This document shows, piece after piece, positions 21,769 through 61,888 of a DNA stretch of 64,000 nucleotides. Under the pieces are notes generated by a model that searched no databases, was not told the origin of the DNA, and saw only the letters and a program-made list of their open reading frames with translations. The stretch's first letter is position 1; each line of letters begins with the position of its first letter. Position numbers and translations under genes: made by a program. The DNA lies in the NCBI RefSeq assembly GCF_004010195.1, contig NC_057726.1, positions 61,834,335 to 61,898,334 of the forward strand. The letters run 5' to 3'. Source of the stretch: Chiloscyllium plagiosum (taxonomy: Eukaryota).

Positions 21769-21991
21769 CAAAAAGTGTGGCGCTGGAAAAGCACAGCCGG
21801 TCAGGCAGCTCCCACTCCACTTTGCTCCCTCACAGGGTCACTGTCTCTGTGACTCCCAGGTATGAGTAATTCTGGAGCACCCACGACTTTGTTCCCTCAT
21901 GGGGTCACTGATACGATGCTGTCTGGCTGTGCTTTTCCAGCGCCACACTTTTTGACTCAGATCTCCAGCATCTGCAGTCCTCACTTTCTCC
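21769..21991. mobile_element. Fold-back PLE pLTR micro-element
   Basis: aaaaagtgtggcgctggaaaagcacagcc and its reverse complement ggctgtgcttttccagcgccacacttttt; diverged flanking direct repeat. Confidence 0.7.
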
Positions 21992-22199
21992 TGGACGAGG
22001 TTTAGGTCTGGTTGATTGTTCTTTTAGAGAGAGTGTGTGTGAATTGGATTTTCGGGTTTAACAATGGTTCCAGACTTCTCTCTGTACCTTGTGCATTTTC
22101 CCGAGCCCAGCCCAGCTGCCAACCTTGTTCTTTTACTTTTAAAAGTTATTTGGAAAGTCCAGGATTTTGGAATAGTATTTCAGAATATGGAGATTTTTT

Positions 22200-23340
22200 G
22201 CTGAATCCAACACTACCTTGCTGGAATTTCTGCACAATCCTTCTCTTTTGTGAAGACAGGATCAAAATACTCACTAAAAACCATGCCCACATCTTCTGTC
22301 TACACACAAAAGTTACCACGTGCATTTCTGATCAGCACAACTTTTTCCTTTGCCATCCTCTCCTCTAAATGTGCCAATAAAGCACCTTTGGATCTTCCTT
22401 AATTTTACAGGCTAATATTTTTTCTGTATCCTTTCTTTCCTTTCTAATTTCTTTTTTCACTTTATCCCATTCTTTTCGTTATCATCTAACTTTCCTAAAG
22501 TATTACTTTTTGTTTGAGATTGACATATGCTCTACTTTTCTGCATTATTTTACCCTGCATGCTTCTGGATAACCAGGGGCATTTAGATTTGTTGGTGCCA
22601 CTTTTGTTTTGTGGGCACATGTTTACATTGTGGCTGGAGGTTCTGACTTTTGAATACTGCCCACTGATTTGCCACCAACTTTCTTTTAAGTAGTTGTAAC
22701 CTGTCCACGTTTTGAGATCATCTCTCAGCTCTGTGAAGTTTGCCTACCTCCAATTTCGAAATTTTATTCCTCATCTAATTTGCCCCTTTTTGTAATGATG
22801 TTAAATCTAAGTGTATTATGATTACAACCTCCATAATTGTCAGCCACGACAATTTCATTCACCTGCCTGACTTTATTTCCTAAGACTTATTCTAGAATTA
22901 GAACATATTCATTGGGATATTTTTTTGGTGGTTAAGAAAGTTATCTTGAATGTAGTTCGAGATTTGTGTACCCTGTGCCCATTACATTGTTTGAATCCCA
23001 ATTGTTGGTTGGATCATTGAAATCCCCAACTATATTACCATATTGTTTTTGCACTCAGCAACTTGCTGAAAAAATTGCTTCTCTAACTCTCTCCCATGAT
23101 TTGAGGGTCCTATCTAGGTGCATACCAAGTAGTTTGGCTGCCCTTATTTTGTTTCTGAGCTCAAACCATTTGGCCTCATTTCAAGCTTCAATTAGTATAT
23201 TATCCTTCATCATAACTGAGGGATTTATTCTTTAACTGATAATGCCCCACCTTCGGCTTTTTAAATCCCTTTTATTGTCCTTGCTGAATACTCGCTATGT
23301 AGGGATGTTGAGCTGCCACTTCTGCCCTCTTTAAGCAAAA
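22200..23340 (-). mobile_element. Decayed CR1 LINE ORF2 (APE endonuclease/linker region)
   Basis: Reverse-strand IVGDFN motif (aaatccccaactat) and typical CR1 composition. Confidence 0.6.
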
Positions 23341-24239
23341 AGTTTGTTACATCAGCGATATATGCCCTCAGATTATTGGTTTGATTTAATACACTCTTCT
23401 ATTTAGATATTGTTATAACGCAGAGGTCACACCCGTCTACTAATTAAAACTAAAACACCTAGAGAAGTTTGCCTCGCTTTGTAATCTGTTAAAAGTGTGA
23501 GTGAAAGAAAAAACCTCTTTCCACAGTTTCCAGAAAAAAATAACAATTTATTTTCCTAACTCTAACGGTGAATACTAAGCAAAGACTATTGACAAATCCA
23601 AGCCCCTTTTTCTTCACTAATCACTATCTTACCCTGCTCTGTGAAAATGCTGCTCCAATACCACAATTATTAAAGATTAAATCAACTTAATCTCTCAAAG
23701 TTATTATAATCTCTAAAGCTGTCTTCCTTCCAGTCTTCCCAATCTGGTGCTTCCTTCCATTCTTCCATTTTTGCTGTCTTCTTCCTCGGTTGTCCTCTTA
23801 CTTTTTACTGCTTTTACTGGAAAACGTATCTTTGAGAGACAGTGCCTTCTGAGGCATTTCTTTTTTGAGAGCCCTTTCAGATGACATGTGCTCTCATGTT
23901 CGATGGCAGTTCCTCTGGCCAATTTTTCAACTGCCCTAGTTTTTATGCCCCTGATTACACCTGAAATTCTTATAGTCTGATTGGGTTCAGGCTGTCAACA
24001 TCATCAGATTTTAAATTCGATTGGCTTTGAAGGACTGAGTGTTTGGTTTAAATCAGTTGGTCAGATTTGAATTTTTGTCAAAACCACAACTTAGCTATCC
24101 ATTTAACAGCCAATTGTTATCTATTATTTCTCCCAGCTGTTCTGTATATTGGCAGTGTTTCCTGTACCTTAAACTCAAAAAAGCACTTTGTCTTAAAGTG
24201 ACCATACACTCTTTCGATGTGGTAATAATACTGTCATTT

Positions 24240-24915
24240 TTATGTGCGGCACGTTTTAACCTGTTTCCTTGCATTTCAGAGTCACTCCCATGCCTACCTC
24301 CCATTCCTTGCTTTGAGTTTGCCCCCCTGTCCGATGTCTATGCCCGATGGGACATGAAATTACTGCTTTGGAGGTCATGTTTTTCAAACTCCTATCGAGC
24401 TCCCTGGAATCTTCTTTCAGAACTTCATCCCTATTCCTACCCAAGTTATTGGTACCAATGTGGATTACCCTATCCCAGAAGAATGTCCTGCAACCACTTT
24501 GTATCATACTTTACCTTGGCCATAAAAAGACAATGTACTGTCCTCAAGTCCTCAAGTCATGTCAAATGCCACAGAAACATCTGTCTGCTCTGCAGAATAT
24601 GCAATCCCCTCTCTCTATTCACTCCCACTTTTTTTTCCCTCAACATGTCCCCTCTTGCTTGGTACATCTGAGCCACTTGTGGTCAGCTGTGGCTGCATGC
24701 TCCTGAGGTACCAATACCCTCACCAGTGTCCAAAATGATATACAGAAAAATGGACTTGGAGGAATCCTTGACTGTCTGCATGGATCTCTGAAATCACATC
24801 CTGGTCACCCATTCCCTGCTGTTTGACACTTCTAAACTGTGGTGTTACCACCTCCTAAACATGCTATCCATACCGGCATCTGCCTGTGGATGTGCAGTAA
24901 AGACTTGAACTATCG
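24240..24915 (-). mobile_element. Decayed CR1 ORF1 (SGNH esterase-like)
   Basis: ORF 24256..24507(-) contains VIHIGTNNLGRNRDEVLKEDSREL..LKNMTSKAVIS. Confidence 0.7.
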
Positions 24916-25635: not shown

Positions 25636-25772
25636 CAAAGTTTAAAAATCACACAACATCAGCTTGTAATCCGATAGATTTATTGCTTCCAAACAAACCT
25701 GTTGCACAATAACCTGGCATTGTGATTTTTAACTTTGTTCACCCCAGTCCAACACCGGCACCTCATCATGGC
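25636..25772. mobile_element. Fold-back PLE micro-element with 12-bp TSD
   Basis: Inverted aaaaatcacacaac / gtgatttttaac arms; TSD tattatgatgga at 25624-25635 and 25773-25784. Confidence 0.75.
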
Positions 25773-26364
25773 TATTATGATGGATGTAGTAGAAAACTTA
25801 CCGTCACTCACCAATCATTTTCATCTCCCACGCCAAAGTAAGTGTCATTTACAGAGGGTGGAAACAGTAGAATAAGGAAGAATATTTCCTCCCTTCACTG
25901 AAGTCGAATTTAACTCACTGTATTTCTATTTTACTCTCTGCACAACAAAAGCAACATGCAGTGCAGACAATGCAGCACTGTGGCATGTCTCTGTTTATGC
26001 TTCCTCAAAACAACAAACTCAAACTTAAATAGAAATTTCAGAAATGGTATAATGCTTGCTTCCAATTCAACATCTGACTATGACCTTGTTGGGGTTTGAA
26101 TGGCAATGTGTACTACCATTTGACATTACAAGCGTGATTTGTAGCTTTTGCACTGGTTTGGTTTCTTTGTCACATAGCAAGGTATAATAGGAATTGTCAG
26201 TATTTTATTTCTTATGCAGGAGGGTTTGCCATTTGCAATAACACTCATTGTTATCATGAGAATTAATTAGGCAGCATTTTTTTTTCTTAGTGCAGTGTGC
26301 AGAATATTTCACCAAGTTTTACAATTTGATGCTCAATGCTGTGCTGCGTACTTTACCTAATCAG

Positions 26365-28278: not shown

Positions 28279-28521
28279 ATGTTTAACATAGTAAAATGGA
28301 CAAATGCTTCTCAGGATCTTGACATCACAAAGTTAGGACAAATAACCAATGATCAAAGTAGTAGGTTTAAGCAAGGTTCGAAATTCAGAGGGACAGATAA
28401 TAAGTTGAAGATTTCCAATGCTTAGGGAAAATATTTAGCACAATCAAGAATTAATGCTGTTACAGAGCAGAGCAGGATGCTGACACATTGGTGCCAGCAT
28501 TGCACTGCCACCAATAAGATA

Positions 28522-29354
28522 GAGTTAAAAATCACACAGCACCAGATTATAATCCAAAAGTTTATTTGGAACTACAAGCTTTCGGAGCACTGCTCCTTCA
28601 TCAGGTAGCTAGTGGAGCAGGATCATAGACCATAAAATTTATAGAAAAAGATTATAGTGTCATACAATTGATGTAATATATTGATCAAACCTAGATTGCT
28701 GTTAAGTTTTTCATCTTTTAGAAAGGCTTGCAGGTTTTGATTCATTAATATGTAAATCCCAAAACTCCTTTCAAGGTTACTTTCCCAAGATAACTTAAGG
28801 TTTTACAAATAAAAGTGACATCTCAGTTCAGACAGTGCATTAAAGGTGTAAGGTTAAAGTCTGTTTGTATTCCAATCTTGAGTCAGACTGGTTCTACTTC
28901 CAAAGTGGGAATTTATAAAATCTCACATGGATTGACTGCCTGCGTTGACTGTCTGCAGATTGTGCGCTTCTTCAACAAAATAGAATTTATCTGCAAATAC
29001 AATTCTGCAAATGCAAACTCAGCCCATAGATGTGTGTGTGTGTGGAAATTATCCTGGGAATGTGACTTGAAAGAAGTTCGGGGATTTACGTATTACGAAC
29101 CGAAAACCGGCAACCCATTCTAAAAGATGAAAGACTTAACAGCAATCTAGGTTTGTTCAATATATCACATCGCTTGTATGACATTACGATCTTTTGCCAT
29201 AAATTTTGTATCCTGTGATCCTGCTCCACTACCTACCTGATGATGGAGCAGTGCTGCGAAAGCTTGTACTTCCAAATGAACCTGTTGGACTATAACCTGG
29301 CGTTGTGTGATTTTTAACCTTGTCCTCCCCAGTCCAACACTGGCACCTCCCCCT
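28522..29354. mobile_element. Fold-back PLE-derived element with two hammerhead motifs and 13-bp TSD
   Basis: Inverted arms about 28523-28796 and 29046-29320; TSD caccaataagata at 28509-28521 and 29355-29367. Confidence 0.85.
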
Positions 29355-29397
29355 CACCAATAAGATAAACTGTTTGTTTCCTTTCATTACGTTTCAG

Positions 29398-29511
29398 GAA
29401 AAAATTCTTTATGACTGGATCAATCCAATTTACCTAGATGTTTCAACTCAAGCCCACATCCAAGAAGAGTTTGAGGAGGAATCAGAGATACTTCTGAAGA
29501 ATTTTTTCAAG
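29398..29511 (+). CDS. OGFOD1: OGFOD1 exon 8
   Basis: tttcag| EKILYDWINPIYLDVSTQAHIQEEFEEESEILLKNFFK |gtgaaa. Confidence 0.96.
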
Positions 29512-33771: not shown

Positions 33772-33976
33772 GAGAAAGGGAGGACTGCAGATGCTGGAGA
33801 TCAGAGTCAAAAAGTGTGCTGCTGGAAAAGCACAGCCGGTCAGGCATCATCTGAGGAGCAGGAGAGTCGACGTTTTGAGCAAACGCTGACATTCCTGATA
33901 AAGAGCTGGAAACATCAACTCTCTTGCTCCTCAGATGCTGCCTGACTGGCTGTGCCTTTCCAGAACCACACCTTTT
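33772..33976. mobile_element. Fold-back PLE pLTR micro-element
   Basis: ctggaaaagcacagccggtcaggcatcatctgaggagca and its inverse; imperfect 14-bp TSD gaaattagttttgg / gaagtttgttttgg. Confidence 0.75.
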
Positions 33977-37700: not shown

Positions 37701-37946
37701 TTCTCCCATTTTTAGGAGCAGGATGTTCCTGGGCTGCTGTGCAGCTGTGTATGTTGGTAGCTGCAGACCTCAAGGCCTGTCATCTGTGTGTCGTGTGCAT
37801 TGACCTGGCCAAATGAAGAAGCCTATTAAGCCTCTTGTGAGACACAGCGTTGGGGTCTTGCTGATGACTTTTGCTGATCATTCACAGGACAGTAATGAGA
37901 AACTCTTCTGTAACCCTGGTACGGGTGCTTGGCCTCTGCTAATCCT

Positions 37947-38031
37947 GAAGAAGGGCTTATGCCCAAAACGTCAATTCTCCTGCTCCTTGGATGCTGCCTG
38001 ACCTGCGCTTTTCCAGCAACACATTTTTCAG
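37947..38031 (+). mobile_element. 85-bp PLE pLTR insertion starting at the hammerhead core
   Basis: TSD ctctgctaatcct at 37934-37946 and 38032-38044; (cct)gaagaagggcttatgcccaaaacgtc. Confidence 0.8.
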
Positions 38032-38175
38032 CTCTGCTAATCCTCCCATTTACTTTTACTTTCCTTTAACTTGCTACGGTAATGGCTGTTGTCATGCCTT
38101 TAAATTGACCCTGCATTTTAATCTCTTGTCATCATCTTCTGCCCAGTGCCAGTTACTGGCCACTAAATCACTCTA

Positions 38176-38356
38176 GGTAAAAACAAGGACTGCAGATGCT
38201 GGAAACCAGATTCTAGATTAGAGTGGTGCTGGAAAAGCACAGCAGTTCAGGCAGCATCTGAGGAGCAGGAAAATTGACGTTTCGGGCAAAAGCCATTCAT
38301 CAGGAATAGAGGCAGAGTGCCTGCAACGTGGAGGCACCCTGCAGACACTCTGCTAA
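38176..38356 (-). mobile_element. PLE pLTR fragment with hammerhead motif
   Basis: Minus strand attcctgatgaatggcttttgcccgaaacgtcaa; imperfect TSD actaaatcactcta / actaaaccactcca. Confidence 0.75.
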
Positions 38357-44261: not shown

Positions 44262-44468
44262 TGAGGAGAAAGTGAGGTCTGCAGATGCTGGAGATCAGAG
44301 CTGGAAATGTGTTGCTGGAAAAGCGCAGCAGGTCAGGCAGCATCCAGGGAACAGGAGAATCGACGTTTCGGGCATAAGCCGAAGAAGGGCTTATGCCCGA
44401 AATGTCGATTCTCCTGTTCCCTGGATGCTGCCTGACCTGCTGCGCTTTTCCAGCAACACATTTCCAGC
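44262..44468. mobile_element. Young fold-back PLE pLTR micro-element
   Basis: Near-perfect inverted arms centred at about 44380; perfect 14-bp TSD tgcctcttactctt at 44248-44261 and 44469-44482. Confidence 0.9.
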
Positions 44469-45509
44469 TGCCTCTTACTCTTCTAAACTCACAAAGAAAG
44501 AAGAGGTCAGCGAATGAGAACTCAAATAAGAAATGTTTTTATCTTTAAAATTTTTTTGTCCAGAGGCCTCTGGATGTTCAGTTGTTTAATATATTCAAGA
44601 CTGAGAATGATAAATGTTTGAGTTCTAAGAAAATGAATTGATATGGGAATAGAATAGAAATATGGAGTTAGTATGAAAGCTCACTGTCAGTCACAGTCAA
44701 GGAGCCACATAATCTAATTGTTGTACACGTCCTTGCTCAACAAGTAGTTTTAGTGTCAGCTTTGGCTCTTTATTTTTGTCTTGAGGCTTGTCAGCTTCCT
44801 TAATAGTAGTAAGATGAAGACAGTCAGATGAATGTTTGTCCTATTTTCAATGTTGGAAGGAAGGCAAAGCTGGATGAATGCTGAAATTCACATGTGGGAT
44901 TCTCTGAGTAGAAGGTGGGGAAAGGAAAATGGTCCATTATTGCTTTGGATTCTCTCAGTCATCTACTTCCTTCAGTCAGCAAAAAAAAGGCTAATTTATT
45001 TAATTAAGCAAAAAAGTGCAAGATTCAAGATGATTTTTACAGTTCTAACGAAGAAACATTTGCCCTAAAACTACAGACCAAGTCCAAGTTAGTGAGACCA
45101 TTCTTGGGTAGTAATATACAGTGTAATTTTTTTGTATGAAATATTGGCTGGATTGTCGGATGAAAATGGTGTGGTATCATGGTTTTGTGATAGCTTTTGT
45201 TTTACCATTATGGCCAGGAAGATGTTGTAATGGATCTATGTATGGATAAGAGCAAAATATAGGATGATTGTTGAATCCTGAATTTAGGTTATTTTAATTG
45301 GAGTTGCAGTCAAATGAGACAGTGATTCACAGCCTGGACAGAAGGAAGATATATTGGTACCACCTGGGAGTCTTGAGACGCAATGGTATTCCTATCTCTG
45401 AACCAGTGGACCAAAGTTCACTACAAGCCCCAGAGGTGTGTAATACCATCTCTTACCATTGGTGAGAACTTGGGTAGGCCATGGCAGACCACTGCAAATC
45501 ATAAACCCA

Positions 45510-47540
45510 AACACAAATTGCTGGTAAAGAATAGCAGTTCTGGCTGCATCTGTGGAGAGAAATCAGAGTTAACATTTTGGCTTGAGTGATGCTTTGTCAG
45601 AATTGATGGTAGCTAGGAAGAAATTGGTTTATGCAGAAGATAGGGTGGCGGAGGGATTAAGAAGTAAACGATAAGGGGGATAGCCCAAAGAAAGACAAAG
45701 AACAGTTAGATAGACAAAGGACTTGATAACTCTCTGGCTAGGTGGGTGAATAGCTATTAATGGGGAGTGTGTCATCGCAGACTATGTAATAACAAGACCC
45801 GGTATATGGGAGTTGGGTTAAGGACACAGGAGAGCTCAAGCCCTAAAGGTATTGAATGCTACATGGAGTCCAGAAGGCTGCATATTCCCCAAGTGGAAAT
45901 TGAGATACTGTTCTTCCAGTTTGTGCTGAGCATAGCTGGAGCATGAAGCAAGCCTGAGACAGAGATGTTGGCCAGGGACCAGGGTGTTATGTTGAAATGG
46001 CAGGCAACTGGAAGCTCAGGGTCTTTCTTTTTGCAGACAGAACGTAGGTGTTCTATGAAGTGTTCACCCAGTCTACCCCAGTGTAGAAGAGACCACATTG
46101 TGAACAGTGAATGCAGTAGACTAAATTGTGTGAAGTGCAAGTAAAGTGCTTCACCTGGAAGGTATGTTTGGATCCTTGGATACTGAGGAGGGGAGAAGTA
46201 AATGGACAAGTGTTTCACCTTCTATGATTGCAAGGCAAGGTGCCATGAAGCTTTGGGAGTGTATTGAGAGTGAAGGAAGAGTGGAACAGGGTGTCACAAA
46301 GGAAATGGTCCCTGCAGAAGGCTGGCAAGGGACGGGAGGGGAACATGTGGTGGCATCTCACTGGAGGTGGTGGAAACAGTGGTTAATAATCCTCTGGATG
46401 TGTGTGCTGGTGGGATGGTAGGTGAGGACAAGGGGACCCTATTGGTATTGTGGGAAAGAGAGGGGGTAAAGGCCAAAGTGCAGGAGATGGGTTGGACCCT
46501 GACAGTGCTGAGCAATCCTTGGTTGAGGAAGAAAGCAGACATTTCAGAAGCTCCCTTGCTGAAGTTGGCACTTTGGAACAGGTATAACAGCGATCAAAGA
46601 ACTGGGAGAATGGAATGGAGGGTTTGTAGGAAGTGGGGTGTGTGGAGTATAGTCAAGGTAACTGTGGTTTATAGTGGATGTTTGTGGCCAGTCTATCCTT
46701 AGAGATGGAAGCAGAGAAATTGTGGAAAGGAAGGGAGGAGTACAAGGTGGGCCAGGTGAAGGTAACAGCAGGGTGGAAATTGGAATCAAAATCGAGAAGC
46801 TTTTCAAATTCCAGATGAGAGGAGAAAGCAGCACTGATGACATCATCAACATACTGGAAAAAACATTGTGAGTTGGGGCTGGGACAGGACTGGAACAAGG
46901 ACTGTTTCATGTATCCCACAAAAAAGACCAGCATAATCGGCAGGTACCCATGGGCACCCCTCTAACCTGAAAAAAAATGAGTGGAGTTAAAAGAAAAATT
47001 GTTCAGGGTGAGGACGGTGGGCGGCACGGTGGCACAGTGGTTAGCACTGCTGCCTCACAGCGCCAGAGACCCGGGTTCAATTCCCGACTCAGGCGACTGA
47101 CTGTGTGGAGTTTGCACGTTCTCCCCATGTCTGCGTGGGTTTCCTCCGGGTGCTCCGGTTTCCTCCCACAGTCCAAAGATGTGCAGGTCAGGTGAATTGA
47201 CCATGCTAAATTGCTCGTAGTGTTAGGTAAGGGGTAAATGTAGGGGAATGGGTGGGTTACGCTTTGGCGGGTCGGTGTGGACTTGTTGGGCCGAAGGGCC
47301 TGTTTCCATACTAATCTAATCTAATCTGTTAGGATGAGTTTAGCCAGGCAGAGCAGGCTAGTGTGGATGGGGACAGTTCAGGTCATTGTTCATGAAAAAC
47401 AGAGACCATCCTGGTGGGGGATGGACGTACAAACGGATTGCATGTCCATGGTAAAGAGAAGGCAGCTAGAGCCTGCAAACTGGAAATTTTGAAACCAGCG
47501 TAAAGTGTCAGAAAAGTCACGGATGTCAGTGGGAAAATTG
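45510..47540 (-). mobile_element. Decayed Penelope-like element (RT, GIY-YIG, pLTR)
   Basis: CFFQYVDDVIS..DSNFHPAVTFTW (RT) and GRLGEHFIEHLRSV..PELPVACHFN (GIY-YIG); frameshifted. Confidence 0.85.
47018..47327 (+). mobile_element. HE1-type SINE, full length and young, nested in PLE
   Basis: gggcggcacggtggcacagtggttagcactgctgcctcacagcgcc...(ctaat)n tail. Confidence 0.9.
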
Positions 47541-48457: not shown

Positions 48458-48865
48458 GCCTAACCAATGTCCTTTCGAGCTGCAACATTACTTCTCAACT
48501 CCTTTACTCAATGCACTGACCAATAAAGGAAAGCACACCAAATGCCTTCTTCACTAGCTTATCTACCTTTGACTCCACTTTCAAGGAACTATGAACCTTC
48601 ACTCAAGGTCTCTTTGTTCAGCAACACTCCCTCGGACCTTACAATTACGTTTATAAGTCCTGCCCTGATTTGCCTTTCCAAAATGCAGCACCTCACATTT
48701 ATCGAAATTAAACTTCAGCTGCCACTCCTCAGCCCATTGACCCACTTGATCAAGATTCAAGATAGATACCAATAAAAGTGATTGGTCCATCTTAACCCTT
48801 AGATATCAAAAAGGCACAATGAACCTCCAACCAAATCAACCAATTGATTTTTAAATTAATCTGAA
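48458..48865 (-). repeat. Inverted duplicate of 49306-49713
   Basis: About 408-bp arm that is a near-identical reverse complement of 49306-49713; compare ORFs 48599..48790(-) and 49354..49572(+). Confidence 0.92.
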
Positions 48866-49414
48866 CTATCTATAACTATAATTATCTATCTATCTATCTA
48901 TAAAAGCTTTTGCTGATGACATCACCAAAATGGTGTTTGGCATGGGCTTGAGTGTAACAACATGTGTCTCACCAAAGGGCACATATGGCATTGGGGGGAA
49001 AAATGAATCACAGCTGAATTTTGTAGCCATTTTCTTTGAATAAAATGTAAACCAGAGCTACATCTGCCTTTTTGGGATCCTGTCACCATATTCAAATATT
49101 CAAGGGAAGGGAGTTGTCCCCACATCTTGGTCAATATTTAAGCCTCAGCCATCCAACTCCATCAAAAACAGGTTATTGGGTCATCTATTTCATTAATGGA
49201 GTAGGGCATTGCTGTATTTAAAGTACTTTGCAGTGACTTCAAGATGCTAAACATTGCACATTTTTTAATGTTTTTGCATAACATGCTATGAACAACATGT
49301 TGAACTTCAGATTAATTTAAAAATCAATTGGTTGATTTGGTTGGAGGAACATTGTGCCTTTTGGATATCTATGGGCTAAGATGGACCAATCTCGTTTATT
49401 GGTATCTACCTTGA

Positions 49415-50265
49415 ATCTTGATCAAGTGGGTCAATGGGCTGAGGAGTGGCAGCTGAAGTTAAATGTCGATAAATGTGAGGTGCTGCATTTTGGAAAGGCA
49501 AATCAGGGCAGGACTTATAAATGTAATTGTAAGGTCCGAGGGAGTGTTGCTGAACAAAGAGACCTTGAGTGAAAGTTCATAGTTCCTTGAAAGTGGAGTC
49601 AAAGGTAGATAAGCTAGTGAAGAAGGCATTTGGTGTGCTTTCCTTTATTGGTCAGTGCATTGAGTAAAGGAGTTGAGAAGTAATGTTGCAGCTCTCAAGG
49701 TCATTGGTTAGGCCACTTTTGGAATATTGTGCACAATTCTGGTCTCCCTGTTATAGCAAGGATGTTGTGAAACTTGAAGGGGTTCAGAAAAAAATTTACA
49801 AGGACATTGCCAGGGTTGGAAGGTTTGAGTTACATGGAGAGGCTGAATAGGCTGGGGCGATTTTATCTGGACTCTTGGAGGCTTAGGGGTGACCTCACAA
49901 AGGTTTGTAAAATCATGCAGGACATGGATAGGGTAAATGAACAAGGCATTTTCCTTGGTCTGGGGGAGTCTAGGACTAGAGGGCATAGGTTTACGGTGAG
50001 AGGGGAAAGACTTACAAGGGACCTAAGGGGCAACATTTTTATGGAGAGGGTTTTGCACGTATGGAATGAGCTGCCGGAGAAACTGGTGGAGATTGGTACA
50101 ATTACAACATTTAAAAAGCATCTGGATGGGTATATGAATGGGAAGGGTTTAGAGGGATATGGGCCAAGTGCTGGAACATGGGACTAGATTAGGTTAGGAT
50201 ATCTGGTCGGCATGGATGAGTTTGACTGAAGAATCTATTTCTGTGCTGTACATCTTTATGACTCA
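49415..50265 (+). mobile_element. CR1 (HER1-like) LINE, 5'-truncated
   Basis: LDQVGQWAEEWQLKLNVDKCEVLHFGK...RPLLEYCAQFWSP...GYGPSAGTWD* plus 3'UTR. Confidence 0.9.
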
Positions 50266-50625: not shown

Positions 50626-51454
50626 ACTCTGACGTAAGAGTGATGTTGGGCAATGTGTTTTATTTTCATTGTTGTCTTCTGGACCTATGTTTTGATTTTG
50701 TGGCTGTTGGACGGTTTTCACACCCTTTAAATTGTCCTAAGCCTTTCTTTCAATCTGTTTCCTTCATTTCTCTGGAGAATAGTTGTCTTTTGTTGGCAGA
50801 GGAAGATTTGAATATAGTGTTATTTAATTATCAATATTGCTTTTTGTGATGGAGGCTACTGTGGGCACTTTTCGCCACGCTGAAGACATTTGCTTCCTAC
50901 TACAAATTGACCTTTGAAGGCAAATGCTGACTGAGCAATGTCTAATAGCCTGTTAGAACTCTCTTGGATATCTTGGTGTAACACGCAATTTATAGCTCTG
51001 GAACAGGTCATTTCATCCAAAGATCAATGCTGTACATATAACTCCTCACCTTACTTCATCTCACTGTCGTCAAATCTTTCTATTTTCTTCTCTGTCATCC
51101 TTAAGTAGTTTCATCGTGAACCTTGTAAAATAAATTATTCAAGTAGTAAGATTTGCTAACTTTGGTTAAATCCATTCCAGTAGGCTTCATCATGTAATTT
51201 TCAACCACTAAAAAAGCCTAATTTTCCCTTTTGCAATTATTTTAAAGGATATGATGACGAAAATTGGGAAAGAAACGGTTTTTTTTTGCCGAGCCGTCTC
51301 TTTTGGCAGTACTCAGGAAATATTTCTTCAATTAATGAAGTACTTCAGAGCAATCTAGGAGAGTTGGAAACTCTCAGCTATTCCCATTTTACTACTGGAC
51401 TGCCTTGGTTAAGAAAGACTTGGATGCTGGAAGGCTAAAGGTAAAAGGCGATAG

Positions 51455-51617
51455 TAAAGACTGCAGATGCTGAAAGTCAGAATCGATAAAATGTGGGGCT
51501 GGAAGAGCACAGCTGGGGAGTCCCGATGAAGGGTCCAGACCTGAAACGTCAATTTTGCTGCTCCTCCGATGCTGTCTGACGTCCTGTGCTCTTCCAGTTC
51601 CACATTTTATCGACTCT
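51455..51617. mobile_element. Fold-back PLE pLTR micro-element
   Basis: tcgataaaatgtggggctggaagagcacag and inverse ctgtgctcttccagttccacattttatcga; mutated hammerhead cccgatgaagggtccagacctgaaacgtc. Confidence 0.75.
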
Positions 51618-52811
51618 AAAAACAAACGGAGACAAGAGTAGGATTCCAACATTCTGTCCTAACATACACTCAGCAGGGTCTGATAAGCTCAACATCACGC
51701 TCGCAGTAGCACAAAAATTGAAAAGGAAAATGCAGTTGCTGGATAATTGAAATGAATGGAAATTGCAGGAGATAATGGAGACGTGGGTGAGGATCTAGGA
51801 AGAAAAGGGCAGTTTGATGTTTGTGGTCTTATTTCACCGCTTCGTTTTACTGCGATTGTTTGAAAACTGTTGTCAGACCTTTCATCGTATGAAATCCTGT
51901 ATTGTAATTGTTAACCGTGGTACATTTTGTTATGGTTCTCTCACACTTAACACTTTGAAAGAGATTTCTCTTCCGGTTCAGTTTCAGTGACAGTTTCCTA
52001 ACGCTTGTGCTCATTGACCGGCGCGCCTTCTATTTCAAGCAGCCCCCGTCTTTGTATCAAACAACTTTTGTGAAGGCTGAGGCGTCACCTGATTAACTAT
52101 TAAAATCAGTAAGATTAAGACTACTTCGGAAGATATTGCCGCTGGTGGGGGCGAGCTGGTCTAGAAGGCGTAAATATGAGATCCTGAATGCTAAATCCGA
52201 CAGGTAACTCAAGAGTGGAGTATGGTACTCCCGACCACAGAGTAGTCGAGGCGAAAAGAATGGATACATTTTAAACAGAAAGCTATTTAACTGTATGAAG
52301 GAAAATCTAAGAGAATTTTACGTCAATAGATTTGGAAGGTTTGTGAGGACAGGGAATGTAAAAGATGGCGAGCAATATGTTTGAGTAATAACATTCCTGA
52401 ACTACCCTATTGAGGGAATTATTTCTCTTTCAGTCAGCAAATGAAACCCGCTCTCCTTTTGGCTTGCGGCAGGTTGGTGAGAGAGGGAAACGGGTGCGTG
52501 CATATTTTGCGAGGACCACTTTTAACCCTCCGCCCGAGAGAGCTGGAGGCGAAATAGCACAGGGTGAGATGGCGTTCGCAGATAAAGTTAGGAGGAATTG
52601 AGGAAGCGCCAAATTGGGTGAGAGTGGGAGTACTCTAGTGCGTGTAGTTTTTGTGCAGCATTAACTGTGAAAGTCTGCTATTTGGGGGAGTAGGCACAGC
52701 ACACTCTTGAGCAGAGGAAACTGGCTGGACAACACAGTTCGCGACCTCACCTTTCTCAAAGTTAAAAATACACAACACCAAGTTATAGTCCAACAGGTTT
52801 AATTGGAAGCA

Positions 52812-52846
52812 CACTAGCTTTCGGAGCGTCGCTCCTTCATCAGGTG
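52812..52846 (-). ncRNA. Minimal hammerhead ribozyme motif
   Basis: Exact reverse complement of 54084-54118. Confidence 0.65.
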
Positions 52847-53050
52847 ATAGTGGAGGGCTCGATCCTAACACAGAATTTATAGCAAAAATTTGCAGTGTGA
52901 TGTAACTGAAATTATACATTGAAAAATTGATTGTCTGTTAAGCCTTTCATCTGTTAGAACACAGTGATAGTTTCACTTCTTTCATGTGTAAATCACAAAA
53001 CTATTTTTTAAAATTGCATTCTCAGGTTAGCTGTTAACAATGGTGATAGC

Positions 53051-53602
53051 ACCTTCCCCTGCAACCGCAGGAGGTGCAAGACTTGCGTCCACACCTCTCC
53101 CCTCACCTCCCTCCAAGGCCCCAAAGGAAACTTCCATATCCGCCACAGATTCACCTGCACCTCCACACACATCATCTATTGCATCCTTTGCACCCGATGT
53201 GGCCTCCTCCATATTGGGGAGACAGGCCGCCTACTTGCGGAGCGTTTCAGAGAACACCTCTGGGACAGCCGGACCAAACAACCCAACCACCCTGTGGCCC
53301 AACACTTCAACTCCCCCTCCTACTCCACCAAGGATATGCAGGTCTTTGGACTCCTCCATCGTCAGACCACAACAACACGACGGTTGGAGGAAGAGCGCCT
53401 CATCTTCCGCCTAGGAACCCTCCAACCACAAGGGATGAACTCGGATTTCACCAGTTTCCTCATCTCCCCTCCCCCCACCTTGTCTCAGTCAAATCCATCG
53501 AACTCAACACCGCCTTCCTAACCTGCAATCTTCTTCCCGACCTCTCCGCCCCCACCCCAGTCTGACCTATCACCCTCACCTTGACCTCTTTCCACCTATC
53601 AC
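53051..53602 (+). mobile_element. PLE GIY-YIG fragment nested in the fold-back element
   Basis: TFPCNRRRCKTC...IIYCILCTRCG..IGETGRLLAERFREHL...RRLEEERLIFRLGTLQPQGMN; 7-bp TSD tgatagc at 53044-53050 and 53603-53609. Confidence 0.9.
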
Positions 53603-54083
53603 TGATAGCTAGACAATATGTTGAAGGTGTTAGCCCCCTGTGTTCTCTGTCTATGACCTGATGTTTAGATTGATTCTAATCTAAAAAGTGAGATAACAGA
53701 GTTTCACATAAATTCATGCAGTTTTTGAGCTCAGAGTTACTTGCAGAGTTACATTGTACTTTGCTCAAAAACTGCATGAATTCATGTAAAACTGTTATCT
53801 CACTTTTTAGATTAGAATCAATCTAAACATCATGGCATAGACAGAGAACACAGGGGGCTAACAGCTTCAACATATTGTCCAGCTATCACCATTGTTAACA
53901 GCTAACCCGAGAATGCAACTTTTAAAAAAGGTTTTGTGATTTACGCATGAAAGAAGTGAAACTATCACTGTATTCTAACAGATGAAAGGCTTAACAGACC
54001 ATCAATTTTTCAATGTATAATTTCAGTTATATCACACTGCAAATTTTTGCTATAAATTCTGTTAGGATCGAGCCCTCCACTAT

Positions 54084-54118
54084 CACCTGATGAAGGAGCG
54101 ACGCTCCGAAAGCTAGTG
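54084..54118 (+). ncRNA. Minimal hammerhead ribozyme motif
   Basis: CAC-CUGAUGA-A-GGAGC(GAC)GCUCC-GAAA-GCUA-GUG: conserved core, stem II hairpin, palindromic AGCU stem III, 3-bp stem I. Confidence 0.65.
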
Positions 54119-54304
54119 TGCTTCCAATTAAACCTGTTGGACTATAACCTGGTGTTGTGTGATTTTTAACTTTGTACAGCCCAGTCCAACACCGGCATCT
54201 GCAAATCATCAACTTTCTCAGACCACCCCACAGACACCTTTTGCCGTCTCACATGGACGTGACCTTTGATTTCTGCTTCAGATAAAGTGTTCAACGCTAG
54301 GTAC

Positions 54305-54860: not shown

Positions 54861-55163
54861 TTACCGCTGAAGTGAAGCAATTTCTGAGTCCGCCCAATGC
54901 GACCGCAGGAGAGACCGTGACTTTTCACTGCTCGTTCCCGCTATTCCGAGATAAAAGACAAATCGCGGTGCACTGGTGGAAAGCCGGAGACCGGACGTTC
55001 TTGAGCTCGAAACAGGATTCCAGGAGAGTGTTCCAGATTGAGAGCAAAGCCAGTGCTATTCTGCGCATTAACAACGTGCGTTTTGGAGACGCTGGCGTCT
55101 ATTATTGCAGGGTGCAGGGTGAATATACTGGAAATGGAACTGGCGTACGGCTGAATGTAAACG
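54861..55163 (+). CDS. IgSF VJ-C1 gene exon 2: V-set domain with built-in J-like strand
   Basis: caacag| VTAEVKQFLSPPNATAGETVTFHC...VHWWK...LRINNVRFGDAGVYYCRVQGEYTGNGTGVRLNVN |gtgagt; canonical Cys, Trp, DxGxYYC and di-Gly J motif; phase 1/1. Confidence 0.93.
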
Positions 55164-55274
55164 GTGAGTGATCACCTCCAGCAATATAGAGGGCAGTTAG
55201 AGGGACAGGAAGGTTGAAATGAGTGGACGGCTGGGAAGGATAATGCGAGTGATTATTAATTTCTCCCTTGTTAG

Positions 55275-55442: not shown

Positions 55443-56581
55443 AACTCAGTGTTTGATTGAACACCCGGTGTTGCAGCAGGCTATTGTATCCGGACAATGG
55501 GACCACAGCTTTCCCCGACGTTACTCAGTGGCCGCGGGAAGTCGGTGCTGCAGTGCTGAAAATTCACAGCGAAAAGCTGAACTCGGGCAAATCGAGGTGA
55601 GGCGTGAACCAACAATTCCGGGTTAAGGAAGCCTGCACCTTATCCATTAGCCCACTGCGACCACCAAAAAACTGAACTTTCGGCAATTGTCAGCAGGGTT
55701 CAACAAGCGACCGCACGCTTCTGTTTTAATTGCTGTTTCGAAATCTTTTACTGCATGAAATCAAATGCATTTTCAAAATGTACATTTCACAGTCTCCCCT
55801 TTGTTAGATTTCGCATCACTATCTGAGTATCACATTATCATTCACCTTCCATCCAGTGAAATCGCGAATTTATTCTCTAATATCCTCTACATGGGAATAA
55901 AATCTGCGAGTTTCGGATACGGTTCAATCTTTTCACTGCTAATTTCTTGCCGGGGATTTCCGAAATGAAAATCCCGGACTTGCCAACACCAAAGCGGGTT
56001 GGAATTTAAAAAAAAAACTTTTGCTGGCCAATTTCAATCATTTGTGCAAGGAAAGTTGCAACATTTTCTGCAGATTGGGGTTTGGATATATTTGCCCGCG
56101 TTGAGTTACACTGTGCTGCATCTTAACTCGTCTGCATGAGATGGTGAAAAATTCACAGCTTTTGTCCAAAACCTATTGTTAGAGGCACTGTGAGGCCGTT
56201 ATCTAAACCGGTTCGGGGTTAAACATATCTGAATAATATGGCGCGGGAAGGTGAAGAATGTTCGACTTTACAAGGTACGGTGGAGAGATTTTCTTCTCGT
56301 GACAGTCGAAACCAGTTAAGATTTTCTTTTTTTTTCTGGTTGGGTATGTGGAGCGAAATGATTGGTTTCTTTTTGAACGAGTTATTGCAACTGGTCAACG
56401 AGATCATTCTCACGAACTCCTCAATGTAAACGCGCTCGGGAATCGGAAGGAGTTTCAAAGTAATTGCAACCAGATTGTGGTATTCCTCCGACCTTAGTCA
56501 TTGCTCGACTGTCGAACATCAGGCACCGACTATATGGATTGTATCTGCCGCACATCTGTTTTGATTTCATTTCTTTTTTAA

Positions 56582-57024
56582 CCGAGCTTTGTAACTTGGC
56601 GCAGGAACCCAGCATGGCCCATTTTACACAAAGGCTTAGAATTCAGATACTGTTCATACAGGAAAAAATGTAATAGCGATTGTGTGTCCACTTTGCATCT
56701 CTGCCAGATTGTATTATCATTGAGATTATCCTTTTAACACAACTGTTTTGCACCACTTCAGAATCTCCTGCAGCGGTCCTTGCCTGTTGCGAGTAGGCGC
56801 AGTTTCTTTAATAATTCGCTGTAACAGTTGAGCGCCGCCGGAGGACATTCTGAACTGGTGCAATTCTCTTAAACGGATAATCTCAATTATAATACATCTT
56901 GGCAGAGATGCAAAGCGCGCACACAGAATCTCTGTTGTATTTTGGCTGTACGTACAGTAACTGAACGGTTATCCTGTGTGTAAAATGGACCATGAAGGAT
57001 CCTGCGCCAAGTTACAAATCTCGG
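56582..57024. mobile_element. TTAA-flanked palindromic MITE (piggyBac-like termini)
   Basis: TTAA|CCGAG...CTCGG|TTAA; diverged inverted arms of about 190 bp, e.g. tgtaacttggcgcagga / tcctgcgccaagttaca and ctttgcatctctgcca / tggcagagatgcaaag. Confidence 0.6.
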
Positions 57025-57028
57025 TTAA

Positions 57029-57300
57029 GGTGAGAGGGGAAAGATTTAAAAGGGACGTAATGGGGATACGTTTTAACGTAGAGGCTGTTGGCGTGTGGAA
57101 TGAGCTGCCAGAGGAAGTGGTGGAGGCGGGTACAATTAGAACATCTAAAAATCAGCTGAATAGGTATATGAATAGGAAGGGCTTAGAGGGATATAGACCA
57201 AAAGCTGGCAAATGGGACTAGATTAATTTAGGACATCTGGTTGGCATGGACGAGTTGGACCGAAGGGATTGTTTCCATGCTGTAAATCTGTATGACATCG
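57029..57300 (+). mobile_element. CR1 LINE 3' end
   Basis: VRGERFKRD..VWNELPEEVVEAGTI..GYRPKAGKWD* plus 3'UTR. Confidence 0.85.
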
Positions 57301-58479
57301 TGACTATCCAAATAGCTGTATTAAAATTATCACATTAAGAAACACTGAAACTCTAGGATTATAAATGAGATCATTCCCTCCCCAAAACACGAAGGTGCGG
57401 CTGTTAATCGGGAGTGATTGACAGTGGGTGGACCGCCCCGTGAAAAAAGGTTATGAACTGCTTCGCTTGTGGGGAATGGTCACTGGACTCGAAACGTTAA
57501 GTGTATTTTCTCTCCACAGATGTTGTCAGTCCTGCTGAGTTTCGCCAGCAATATTTCCTTTTTGTTTCAGATCTTCATCCGCAGTTCTTTGTTTTATTTA
57601 TTTGAAAGGCTTGTTCGCCACGTCTGAGCGTGTCTGTATATGGTCTAAGTGAAACGCCGATTGGTGTCAAATCTAGATAACAAATACTTCGAACCCCTGA
57701 AAAGCCAGAGATCATGACTGTCAAAATAGAATATTTAGTATCTAAGTGGTATAAACGTTTAGCCATTCAGCTTCGTGTCAAATGTACGTTCCTCCCAAAT
57801 TGTTAACAATTCAGAGCGTTCATCCCCAGCCGCTCGCTTAACCTTCGCGTTTCAAAGCTTGACCCAACTCCGGAGGAAGTGTTCAGATGAGAAGATAATA
57901 ATAGAGTAAGAAAACTCAAGGTTTGATTTTGAGACCTTGGAGCTTTAAACGTTGTTCGAATCAGCGGTCAGACTAGCTATTTAATTTGTGATCCACGCTG
58001 TTTCCGATCATTTATTATCTAAGCTAACAACCAGCTTTTTATATATAAAAAAGGAAGTTCGCTTTCATTATGAGCTGTAATATTGGTTTGGCTTAATATG
58101 CGATCACGTAACCAGCCCCAAATCCACCCTCCATTATAAACGTGGGATGTGATGAGTTTGATCCGGTTTTTAAGTTTTATCGGCAGGTTCAAAATGTAGA
58201 GTCTTCAGTTGGCGGACTCAATATTCAACCCAGTCATGGAGATGTACTGCACGGAAACAGACCCTTCGGTCCAGCTCGTCCATGTCGACAGGATATCCTA
58301 ACCTAATCTAGTCCCATTTGGTCAATATCCCTCTCAACACTTTCTATTCATTTACTCATCCAGATGCCTTTTAAATGTTGCTATTAGTCTCTATGTCATG
58401 GCTGCAAGTTAGTGTTGAAGTGAATAATGTTTTACGTTACTGAAACTGAATTGTTTATAAAAAAGAGATTCCATAGATA

Positions 58480-60310
58480 GAGCGGTGAAAATGCTCACTT
58501 AGGCGATGTTAAACATAAAGACTCAAAAGTTGATAAGGACTACCAAATAGAAGCTGGCTGGAAGCCCTTGATGCTTCCACCCCACTCTACGATTCAACAA
58601 GATCCCGCCTGATCTACACCAAAGACACCTTCATACAAAATCCAATTATCTGTCAGGCCTTGACCCAATAACCATTTATTCCCTTGGTACCCTGGGGTTA
58701 TTGATCTCAATCTTAACTACATTCAACCACTGGGCATCCACTGCCCTGAGGAAAGTGGCTGACCTTTTTTTTTCAGACACATCAGCGGGGATGTACGCTT
58801 TCTACCTTAAAATATTTTGCACGTTTCAATTCGATCAACTCTCAGTCTTCCCAATTCTGGGCAGTAAAGGATGAGTCTACTCAGTGTCTTCAAAGGACAA
58901 TTCCCTTCTTCTGTTGTAAACCTTAGTGTCCTTATTTAATTAAAAAGTCCAAAACTACACACAAAACTTCAGGCTAGAGGAATAACTACCATGGGAATAA
59001 CTTTATACTGCCCATTGTCTTTCTATGTTCTTGCTCACTCACCTAACTTGTCCATCTTTTCTCTTGCAACTTTATTGTGTTCTCTTCCCTGCTCAATTCC
59101 CCATCTAGCCTTTTTATCATCATCAAACTTGGACACTTTATATTCAATCCCCTCATCTAAATAACTAATACACATCCTTAATAGCTAAGGATCAAGTTTT
59201 GATCCTTGTGGAACCCTCTTTGCTACAGCTTGCCAAACTAAAAATCATAGAATCCCTACAGTGTGGAAACAGATCATTCAGCCCAACATGTCCACACCGA
59301 TCCTCCTAAGAACATTGCACACAGACGCATCTCTCAACCCTATAACCTTGCATTTCCTATGGCTAATGTATCTAATCTACACATTCCTGAACACTATGGG
59401 CAACTTAGCCTGGCCAAAACACCCAAGCTGCACATCATTGGCCTGTGGGAGGAAATCAGAGTGTCCAACAGAAACCCACACAGACACGGCGAATGTGCAA
59501 ACTAGACACAGACAGTCACCCAACTTTGGAATTGAACCTGGGTCCCTGGCACCGTGAGGCAGCACTGCTAAAAACTGAGCCACTTTGCTACCCTTTTTCC
59601 TAATATGTTTTCTTTCCGTCATTCAATTCTCAATCTATGCTCATATATGACATCAAATCTTATAAGTATTAAGTTAGTTTAATAACCTGCATACCACCTT
59701 TATTGAGTACATCTTGGAAATCTCAAAACAAAAACCAACCAACAACTAGAACAATCTTCCTGGTTATATCCTCAAAAAGATCTTAACAGAAGCCATTCCC
59801 TGTCATTCTATGTCAACTATGCTGAATCATATGATTTTCTAAGAGGTCTATTACCCTGCCTCTAATAATAGCATCTAGCATTTTACCTATGAATATTCAA
59901 TTATTTGGCCCTTAGCCCCTTTGTTTTATCCCTTGCCTCTTTCTTAAGTAATCAAGTTTATGTCAACTGCCTACTGATTCCTGTGAATTATATTTAATTT
60001 AAGAATTCTGAAAGAAAAAAGTAATGCATCTATGATCTGTGCTGCTATCTCTTTTAAAACTGTCTGATGCAGATTTTCAGGAACAGGGGATTAATGATCT
60101 CTTAGTCCAATAGATTTTGTACTTATATCGATTTCTTTTCATTTCCTAATTTTTACAAGACATTTGGTTGCCCATTTTTGCAGCTTTATTTTTGGCTGAT
60201 GCTGTGGAGAAATATGCATTGTATCTGTTTAATGCCTCTGTCATTTCCTCATTCCACATTATACTTCCATTTGTTTCTGCTTCCAGTAGGTCTACATTTA
60301 CATTTTCTGA
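58480..60310 (-). mobile_element. Decayed CR1 LINE
   Basis: Reverse-strand RVPQGS (tgtggaaccct), KFDDDKK and EMTEALNRY motifs. Confidence 0.6.
59245..59592 (-). mobile_element. HE1-type SINE nested in CR1
   Basis: Reverse complement of tRNA head and V-domain. Confidence 0.8.
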
Positions 60311-61643
60311 TTCCTTTCTAGAAGTCTTGTGGTGCAATGGCAGCTTCCTTGCCTCTGGGCCAGATTCTTCTGGTTCAATTTGCACTCCATGTCTTGATGG
60401 CAAGCAAAGTGCATAGCTAAGTGTATGAGCATCAACTTGTACATCCTTTCAGCACATGCCAATGAGACGCAGTAACAGCAAGAGAGATCCCTGTTCAGCT
60501 GTCAGATCACACATCCATGTGAAGGAGAGAAACCTGGAACCTCCACCATAGTTCTGTGTATGTTGCCACAGCAACTTGGCCTCTTTGTGGAATGGTTGGT
60601 TCAGTTGGCTATTGATCTGTCTGATGCCAATAGCTTTGTGTCAATTGAAATTATGTCTAGACAGGATTCAGAATCACCCTTCTTGTCATATTCATGATGG
60701 AAGTCATACTGCTGTGTATCAGACCTGTCTTCAAGCAGAAAATGCAAGAAGTAACACCTCTTTCTAACAACTTCCTACGGAAGCATTCTCAATCTCTTTT
60801 TTTTTAAATGTATCTAGCAAGTATGCTGGGATTCTTTGACCGAATCAATTTCTGGGGTCTCTTTATATCCTTATAATATCTTTCCAACTTTCATGTCTGC
60901 TGCTCATTTTAATGCTGGGCCAGCATTTACTGCCCATCCCTTGAGAAGGTGGTGGTGAGTTGCCTTCATGGACCATGGCAGTCCATTGGCATGAGTATAC
61001 CCAAAATGCCAGTGGGAGGGGGTTTCATGATTTTAATCCAGCAACACTGTAGGAAGTGCAATATATTTCACCAATGGATGGTGAATGGTTTGGAGTGGCA
61101 TTTGCAGGTAGTCTTGTTCCCAAGTATTGCTGCAATTGTCCTTTTAGATGGTAGTGGTCACAGGTTTAGAAGGTGCTATCTAAGGACTTTTGGTGAGTTG
61201 TTGCAGTGCATCCGGTAGATGGTACACATTTACTCTACTGAGCATTTGTTATGGGCGAGTGAATATTTGTGAATGTTGTGCCAATCAAGAGGAGTGCTTG
61301 GTTTTGAATGGTGTCAAAACTCTTGAGTGTTGTTGGTGCTGAAGTCATTCAGGATTATGAGATGTATTTAACCACACTCCTGACTTGTGCCTTGTCGATA
61401 GTGGGCAAACTTTGAGGAGTGAGGAAGTGAGTTACTTGGTGTAGTATGCACAGCCACTGCATTTATATGGCTCCCCTGAGCAACTCGTGCAGTGTGACCT
61501 GGAGCTGAGATGACTAATTTTCAACAAGCAGAACCATCTTCTTTTATGTTAGGTCTAACTCCAACTAGTGGCAACTTTTCCACCAAGTCCCTTTGATTTG
61601 CATATTGTTAGGGTTCCGTGATGCCAAACTGAGTCTAACATGG

Positions 61644-61888
61644 ACCAAAAGCAGAAATTGCTGGAAAAGCTTAGCAGATCTGATAGCATCTGTGGAGAGA
61701 AATCACAATTAATGTTTCAAGTCGAGTGACGCTTCATCAGATTGTTCTGTTCATGTTCTGAGGAAGGGTCACTTGACGCAAAATGTTAACTTTGATTTCT
61801 CTCCACAGATGCTACCAGACTTGCTGATCTTTTCTAGCAATTTCCATTTTGTCTCTTATTTACAGCATCCACAGTTTTTTCAGTTTTT
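61644..61888. mobile_element. Fold-back PLE pLTR micro-element (third family)
   Basis: Inverted arms with ctgaggaagggtcacttgacgcaaaatgtta and a minus-strand ctgatgaag..gaaacatt; 16-bp TSD actgagtctaa(c/t)atgg at 61628-61643 and 61889-61904. Confidence 0.8.

Follow-up and report, generated by a model that had tools for sequence, protein, structure and literature searches.

How does the terminus of a retroelement come to stand twice, head to head, at a single insertion site? The question is raised by a stretch of 64,000 nucleotides from the shark Chiloscyllium plagiosum (NC_057726.1, positions 61,834,335 to 61,898,334; hereafter the window), in which self-comparison and alignments reveal nine loci that are head-to-head pairs of a Penelope-like element (PLE) 3' terminus, with the 3' ends pointing outward. 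An earlier note on this DNA had described eight of them as inverted pairs of a Penelope 3' terminus; all eight are confirmed as real structures by the same comparisons, and the ninth, at 8616-8786, was missing from its list. It is proposed here that the pairs are probably best explained as ordinary, extremely 5'-truncated insertions of endonuclease-containing (EN+) PLEs, made by double-primed target-primed reverse transcription (TPRT) with end-joining. The evidence lies in the anatomy of the arms, in the target-site duplications (TSDs) that enclose them, in centres that differ from locus to locus, and in the attachment of two of the termini to reverse transcriptase (RT) and GIY-YIG endonuclease open reading frames (ORFs).

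Anatomy of the inverted insertions

Exactly one arm of each pair carries an unpaired tail inside the element, of about 27-37 nt as measured from the boundaries (9/9 loci), in agreement with the one-sided tail that the earlier note had reported. The loci, referred to below by the start positions first listed for them, fall into three terminus families: A (21769, 33772, 44262 and 51455), A2 (61644) and B (8616, 25636, 28522 and 52759). Together with the comparator copies they are:

8616..8786: family B inverted insertion; tailed arm 8616-8675 (-), filler of about 15 nt, tail-less arm 8691-8784 (+) with an intact hammerhead core; OGFOD1 intron 1; TSD not significant.
21768..21991: family A inverted insertion; tail-less arm to 21809 (-), foreign centre of about 105 nt, tailed arm from 21915 (+); without hammerhead; borderline 14-bp TSD 21754-21767/21992-22005 with 3 mismatches; OGFOD1 intron 6.
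25636..25772: family B inverted insertion; tail-less arm of about 50 nt (-), tailed arm of about 88 nt (+); without hammerhead core; perfect 12-bp TSD 25624-25635/25773-25784; OGFOD1 intron 6.
28522..29354: family B inverted insertion; long tail-less arm 28522 to about 29045 (-), which owns the unpaired centre and an intact hammerhead at 28580-28604, tailed arm about 29050 to 29354 (+); perfect 13-bp TSD 28509-28521/29355-29367; OGFOD1 intron 7.
33772..33975: family A inverted insertion; tailed arm (-) to about 33886, tail-less arm (+), hammerhead decayed; 15-bp TSD with 2 mismatches 33757-33771/33976-33990; OGFOD1 intron 10.
44262..44468: family A inverted insertion, the youngest (arms 99% identical); tailed arm 44262-44380 (-), tail-less arm 44381-44468 (+), the junction cutting into the hammerhead core; perfect 14-bp TSD 44248-44261/44469-44482; downstream of the OGFOD1 stop codon.
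51452..51617 (locus 51455): family A inverted insertion; short tailed arm (-) to about 51513, tail-less arm 51521-51617 (+) with one hammerhead-core mismatch; TSD not significant.
52759..54208: family B inverted insertion; paired arms of about 410 nt, 96% identical, the tailed right arm owning the 32-nt centre; both hammerheads intact, 52819-52843 (-) and 54087-54111 (+); 12-bp TSD with 1 mismatch 52747-52758/54209-54220.
53051..53602 (+): nested in the left arm of 52759; C-terminus of a PLE GIY-YIG endonuclease and part of its 3' untranslated region, of family-A type; own 7-bp duplication 53044-53050/53603-53609 (p=0.03).
61644..61888: family A2 inverted insertion; tail-less arm 61644-61741 (-), filler of about 11 nt, tailed arm to 61888 (+); hammerheads decayed; 16-bp TSD with 1 mismatch 61628-61643/61889-61904.
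37945..38034 (+): comparator, solo family-A copy, tail-less, with a perfect 13-bp TSD of its own.
38177..38356 (-): comparator, solo family-A copy, tailed, with a 15-bp TSD of its own.
3649..4645 (+): comparator, longer 5'-truncated family-A copy with the GIY-YIG ORF end joined to the hammerhead-bearing terminus on the same strand; another repeat interrupts it at 4138-4285.
45492..47536 (-): comparator, decayed family-A2 copy, RT/GIY-YIG ORF remnants joined to an A2 terminus; interrupted at about 47018-47325.

There are nine further solo or longer copies of the A and A2 termini, and nine of the 18 terminus-bearing loci in the window are inverted, among them all four of family B. This exceeds chance adjacency: when the same 27 arms were placed independently at random (a point model with a 400-nt window), head-to-head pairs averaged 0.37 with a maximum of 4, and at least nine pairs arose in none of 20,000 runs. 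It is therefore very improbable that the arms arrived as two independent adjacent insertions or by later local inverted duplication of a solo copy. Both processes have examples nearby, an independent pair of copies at 37945-38034 and 38177-38356 and a 408-bp inverted duplication at 48458-49713; that independent pair, however, is tail-to-tail with two TSDs, a single TSD encloses both arms of an inverted unit, and copying one arm cannot yield the non-nested arms described below.

The claim that most units are flanked by a direct repeat of 12-16 bp holds for six of the eight loci first listed (25636, 28522, 33772, 44262, 52759 and 61644), whose TSDs score above every one of 400 random position pairs (maximum null score 7.5); element boundaries were placed by eye before this test. 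Across all nine loci the TSD around the unit is significant at these six, borderline at 21769 (p=0.055), and not significant at 51455 (p=0.35) and 8616 (p=0.44) against the same null. The solo copies at 36979, 39756, 6299, 7898 and 57467 likewise gave no significant TSD in this test.

The centres and the inner ends of the arms vary from locus to locus. Relative to the hammerhead C3, the 5' ends of the two arms lie at +49/+46, +11/-5 to -14, +10/+3 and +61/-1 in the family A loci, at +52/-9, +39/+33, beyond -354/-183 and -323/-355 in the family B loci, and at 0/about -4 in the A2 locus; no centre is common to two loci in the window (0/9). Eight of the 18 arms have their 5' ends between -9 and +11 relative to C3 (arms of 8616, 33772, 44262, 51455 and 61644), a cluster that may reflect a transcript 5' end or an RT stop. 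The unpaired centre is owned by the tail-less arm at 8616, 28522, 33772, 44262 and 51455 and by the tailed arm at 25636 and 52759; ownership is marginal at 61644, and the centre of 21769 is foreign. A centre-orientation test supports the assignments at 28522 (score 38 against a null maximum of 37 in 500) and 52759 (p=0.001). In five of the nine loci, then, the tail-less arm reaches further 5' while the other arm has the tail, and neither is a subset of the other. The foreign centre of about 105 nt at 21810-21914, between the arms of 21769, contains a diverged 35-nt direct repeat, and a search of the window for its source returned none (best score 33 against a null maximum of 34 in 15 shuffles).

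At the outer side, tailed ends lie at +117 to +133 from C3, and the tail-less arms and the solo tail-less copies share roughly one end position, which fits an RT start site. A tail is present in only four of the nine solo or long copies; under independent choice, exactly one tail at 9/9 inverted loci has p ~0.002, which suggests that the two start sites are coupled.

A Penelope origin is upheld for A and A2, since same-strand RT/GIY-YIG ORF remnants are joined to both termini. The A terminus at 4521-4645 comes after the end of the GIY-YIG ORF and the A2 terminus at 45492-45602 after RT/GIY-YIG remnants, each on the strand of its hammerhead; the remnants themselves (3753-4151 for A, 47536-45949 for A2) run on into the termini, and their best, full-length homologues carry RVT_1 and GIY-YIG domains. 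A retroelement fragment in the window best matches Chiloscyllium punctatum proteins (80%). A C-x4-C-x2-C-x-H motif ahead of GIY-YIG in both family-A fragments agrees with the zinc-finger-like motif between RT and endonuclease described in PMC8557442, and may point to the Neptune clade. Family B is assigned to the PLEs, putatively, on structure: hammerhead, tail, inversion and TSD. As a whole the copies display the features of EN+ PLEs, namely an ORF link (A, A2), a tail at one end, an inverted truncated copy placed head-to-head, a TSD and a minimal type I hammerhead; a direct pseudo-long terminal repeat (pLTR)-ORF-pLTR partial tandem was also looked for, and the window holds no full-length copy. 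Another decayed PLE RT/endonuclease remnant, without a recognisable terminus, lies at 13785-14959 (+) in OGFOD1 intron 4.

Several descriptive points of the earlier note require revision. Its three unrelated families reduce, judged by alignment, to two unrelated lineages, A/A2 and B, as the A2 terminus of 61644 aligns to A at 66% over 122-135 nt (E ~1e-9). The label "micro" does not suit arms that range from about 40 to at least 490 nt. Nor are the units all free of ORFs: locus 52759 spans 1.45 kb and holds the GIY-YIG fragment 53051-53602, which is a later nested insertion outside the hairpin proper because the site is still empty in the opposite arm and the fragment is bounded by a 7-bp duplication.

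Origin of the palindromes

Among the alternatives offered in the earlier note was that the palindrome is made at each insertion, and this part stands: there is one TSD per unit, the centre differs at every locus, and the arms are mutual nearest neighbours in four of the nine loci. The simple template switch during TPRT that was to make it is not supported, given the five loci in which the tail-less arm is longer at its 5' side while the other arm is tailed. Since their arms are non-nested, neither snap-back of a complementary DNA (cDNA) nor later inverted duplication makes them.

Double-primed TPRT would proceed as follows. The GIY-YIG endonuclease of an autonomous element would cut both target strands with a stagger of 12-16 bp, and each nicked 3' end would prime its own cDNA on sense PLE RNA, one cDNA beginning at a distal RT start site (the tailed arm) and the other some 30-37 nt upstream (the tail-less arm). 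Both cDNAs would stop early, and their free ends would be end-joined with 0-7 nt of microhomology or a short filler; where a single priming survived, a solo copy would result. Because the two cDNAs are both antisense and lie on opposite strands, they would necessarily form a head-to-head repeat, 3' ends outward, inside one TSD. That both primings belong to one event, and the manner in which the ends are joined, we infer; cleavage and extension of both strands and the existence of two RT start sites come from the in vitro work of PMC11167929. The literature searched yielded no paper on these shark families, which appear to be undescribed there, nor an explicit double-priming model for PLE inversions, and earlier PLE papers may hold one.

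An unlikely alternative is self-priming. Here a short palindrome would let either the first cDNA or an antisense RNA template bend back and serve as its own template, the tail arising from resolution by the endonuclease. Head-to-head PLE junctions have been explained in this way in print: PMC3846280 proposes an antisense template that primes itself, and PMC8557442 suggests that the tail results from endonuclease resolution. Short palindromes do occur where the arms of 52759 and 51455 meet, the 33772 junction fits a 7-nt inverted repeat that brackets the 5' edge of the family-A hammerhead, ownership of the centre by the tailed arm, as at 25636 and 52759, is what a snap-back predicts, and a fold-back of about 20 nt terminates the solo copy at 38175-38356. 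Yet at five of the nine loci the centre belongs to one arm and the tail to its partner, so neither was copied from the other; no consistent long palindrome is seen at the junctions; and stem II, the obvious snap-back point, is unused at 44262, where both arms keep the entire stem-loop. Variants with an antisense template and off-centre resolution may still apply. As to the solo copy itself, the 5' side of this tailed family-A copy ends at 38310-38356 in a fold-back that excludes the 3' terminus, possibly a true snap-back or a product of internal priming, and a 9-mer from the TSD of the neighbouring copy recurs at 38348-38356.

Double-primed TPRT has evidence to reckon with on the other side as well. 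The base is nine events in one window, three of the nine loci lack a significant TSD, and no family-B copy linked to an ORF is present in the window. Mutual nearest arms are found at no more than the four loci mentioned, and the old loci (73-86% arm identity) lie within the family background. Of the four junctions tested for templating, that of 8616 is significant (p=0.007), those of 52759 (0.08) and 61644 (0.06) are marginal, and that of 51455 shows none (0.42). Finally, a family-B tail-like stretch at 28491-28508 stands unexplained outside the left TSD of 28522 (about 14/18 identical, p=0.001); it may be due to chance or to insertion beside an older remnant.

A stronger version, which we put forward tentatively and consider rather less likely to hold than not, is that double priming is coupled: one RT-endonuclease dimer would prime both staggered nicks, always with one distal and one proximal start; the short arms would often be run-off products from the transcript's upstream pLTR, to which the eight arm ends clustered near C3 would correspond; and the many hairpins of this kind to be expected in shark genomes would be a fossil record that settles the origin of the inverted pLTR and tail, as well as a notable source of intronic double-stranded RNA (dsRNA). 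On the coupled reading the start sites would flank a predicted body-tail RNA stem of both unrelated families. A stem of 7-9 bp is predicted in 5/5 tailed copies from all three families, with pair probabilities of 0.80-1.00 in single-sequence folding; it shows no covariation within families and is not predicted by the A/A2 consensus fold.

Hammerheads, mobilisation as a unit, and the host gene

On the double-priming reading the hammerhead is a passenger from the pLTR. The earlier note had stated that most units retain a CUGANGA-stem II-GAAA motif, which overstates its survival: the exact core with GAAA is found at 3/8 of the loci it named, and with stem II intact at 2/8, where intact means the exact core, GAAA and a contiguous stem II of at least 3 bp. 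Intact hammerheads among these eight are those of the 28522 left arm and both arms of 52759; a single core mismatch is present at 44262 and 51455, 33772 and 61644 retain decayed hammerheads, and at 21769 and 25636 the truncation lies downstream of the core. Over all 18 arms, core and stem II are intact in four, mismatched once in two, and decayed or truncated away in 12. The core pattern matches the window 22 times against 7.5 expected, and an Rfam scan matched no hammerhead family; three sub-threshold Rfam microRNA hairpin matches were rejected as generic. The predicted cleavage site, at about +29 from C3, is inside the arm and sets neither element end; cleavage as the origin of the 5' ends was considered and rejected, with only the right arm of 25636 starting near the predicted site.

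Whichever strand of a head-to-head unit is transcribed, the sense hammerhead falls in the arm transcribed second, and each strand has only one. For units with the core covered by both arms, folding predicts that the fold-back hides the ribozyme: the core pairs with the other arm with a mean probability of 0.92 at 28522 and 1.00 at 52759, and of 0.58 in the left arm of 61644, and is predicted to be free at 8616 (0.02), where only one arm spans the ribozyme. The right arm of 61644, whose window was offset by about 6 nt, is left out of these values. According to the relevant passage of PMC4209133, minimal PLE hammerheads cleave poorly and require a same-strand dimer.

These data bear on the other possibility raised by the earlier note, a separate class of non-autonomous, ribozyme-carrying hairpin RNAs mobilised in trans as units, which we regard as the most improbable of the explanations weighed. 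In its favour are the high density (nine in 64 kb), the inversion of all four family-B loci, the TSDs around the units and the existence of non-autonomous PLE derivatives, among them the tandem retrozymes (bioRxiv 10.64898/2026.07.22.740005) and Chlamys MRC1. Such units should nevertheless share their centres, and 0/9 do; solo copies of the same families with 13-15 bp TSDs coexist with them; core and stem II are intact in only 4/18 arms, the hammerhead being mostly lost or broken; where both arms cover it, the core is predicted to pair with the other arm; the cleavage site is internal to the arm; and an inverted pair offers one minimal hammerhead per strand rather than the same-strand dimer. 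Multiple copies with the same ends and interior, as in miniature inverted-repeat transposable elements (MITEs) or short interspersed elements, were looked for in the window and not found. Nor do tandem units each with a complete hammerhead, the mark of retrozymes, occur among the nine: all pairs are head-to-head, with at most one sense hammerhead per strand.

The window has 40.7% GC and is vertebrate-type DNA. OGFOD1, mapped by tblastn, occupies 7593-41963 (+) with 13 exons, of which 32533-32844 matches OGFOD1 of Hemiscyllium ocellatum, the nearest protein with a name, at 93%. Five of the nine inverted loci lie in its introns 1, 6, 6, 7 and 10, amounting to about 465 bp per arm at 73-95% identity over the 34-kb span. 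Here PLE termini take part in every one of the 11 inverted alignments of at least 60 nt (two within-locus fold-backs and nine between dispersed copies) and would thus be the main predicted duplex source in OGFOD1. From sequence considerations a role of the hairpins in intronic dsRNA is plausible. Comparison of the arms revealed no signature of adenosine-to-inosine editing, the mismatches being C/T in 45 cases and A/G in 22, contrary to the excess that editing would leave (p ~0.05 after composition), and the lower arm identity of intronic hairpins is a trend only (5 vs 4 loci, p=0.095). The right TSD of 28522 ends about 30 nt upstream of the apparent splice acceptor of OGFOD1 exon 8 (29355-29398), and the predicted duplex apparently abuts the branch-point region.

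Other features of the window are not tied to these loci. The 408-bp local inverted duplication at 48458-49713 (96% identical, copies 440 nt apart) comprises part of a LINE-like (long interspersed element) repeat and unique flank and is not PLE-related. LINE-like fragments form a further inverted pair at 57140-58379, 936-1114 nt apart, with a solo A2 terminus at 57467-57595 between them. A degenerate 450-bp palindrome at 56578-57028 has TTAA at both ends and presumably resembles a piggyBac-type MITE. Downstream of OGFOD1, an immunoglobulin V-set domain exon of a second gene lies at about 54866-55165 (+); a PDB search with it gave only generic immunoglobulin matches.

As an element class the hairpins matter little, being the short end of the known PLE insertion spectrum. 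In automated annotation such copies may pass for microRNA hairpins or MITEs, a risk indicated by the sub-threshold microRNA matches that were all Rfam returned. Their value is mechanistic: each locus records which arm bears the tail, which arm owns the centre and what homology the junction has, and these readouts separate double priming from self-priming. A shark assembly would provide them in bulk and make an open mechanistic question testable at genome scale.

Relation to known systems

The layout of these loci has close published counterparts. The cited part of PMC8557442 describes a PLE 5' end adjoined by an inverted 5'-truncated copy and a tail of 30-40 bp often present at one end only, and calls the origin of tandem and inverted structures undefined; passages of PMC3846280 report inverted pLTRs with a tail and 8-10 bp TSDs, head-to-head being the most frequent arrangement, and foreign DNA captured between pLTRs inside the TSD in A. 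vaga; inverted pLTRs and short 3' extensions are named as known PLE features in PMC8969392. With the EN+ PLEs (Penelope/Poseidon, Neptune) of these passages the shark loci have in common 5'-truncation, the head-to-head copy, the one-end tail, the whole-unit TSD, the pLTR hammerhead, an RT with C-terminal GIY-YIG in linked copies and, at 21769, foreign DNA between the termini. They differ in TSD length, 12-16 bp here against the A. vaga values, in arms usually cut to 40-490 nt, which leaves no ORF or direct pLTR pair, and in the proportion of inverted copies, half of those in the window.

In Schistosoma mansoni, dual minimal hammerheads on opposite strands and 100-700 bp apart were ascribed in 2014 to truncated PLEs (PMC4209133), an arrangement the same as that of 28522, 52759 and 61644; the passage describes no TSDs, tails or mechanism. 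A purified PLE protein (PAc, Poseidon of Anolis carolinensis), a predicted dimer, cleaves and extends both strands and begins RT internally at two adjacent sites, which set the limits of the tail, hammerhead cleavage being dispensable (PMC11167929). Its start site lies about 110-120 nt downstream of the hammerhead, a scale similar to that of the tailed ends here, although host and family are different and the part cited does not address inverted products or the coupling of start sites per event. The non-LTR retrozymes of bioRxiv 10.64898/2026.07.22.740005, as presented in the cited part, are likewise non-coding, related to PLE pLTRs and furnished with a type I hammerhead; they are head-to-tail tandem units with a hammerhead in each, in contrast to the head-to-head pairs, unique centres and mostly dead ribozymes of the shark loci. 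The eight structures of the earlier note are very short truncated insertions of a known retroelement family, the PLEs, and not a new ribozyme element.

LINE-1 twin priming offers a further parallel: both target strands prime cDNA, and an inversion results inside one TSD. There the second primer anneals at an internal position, and what becomes inverted is upstream sequence, whereas both arms of the shark loci copy the same 3' terminus, and their architecture is that of the published PLE insertion layout.

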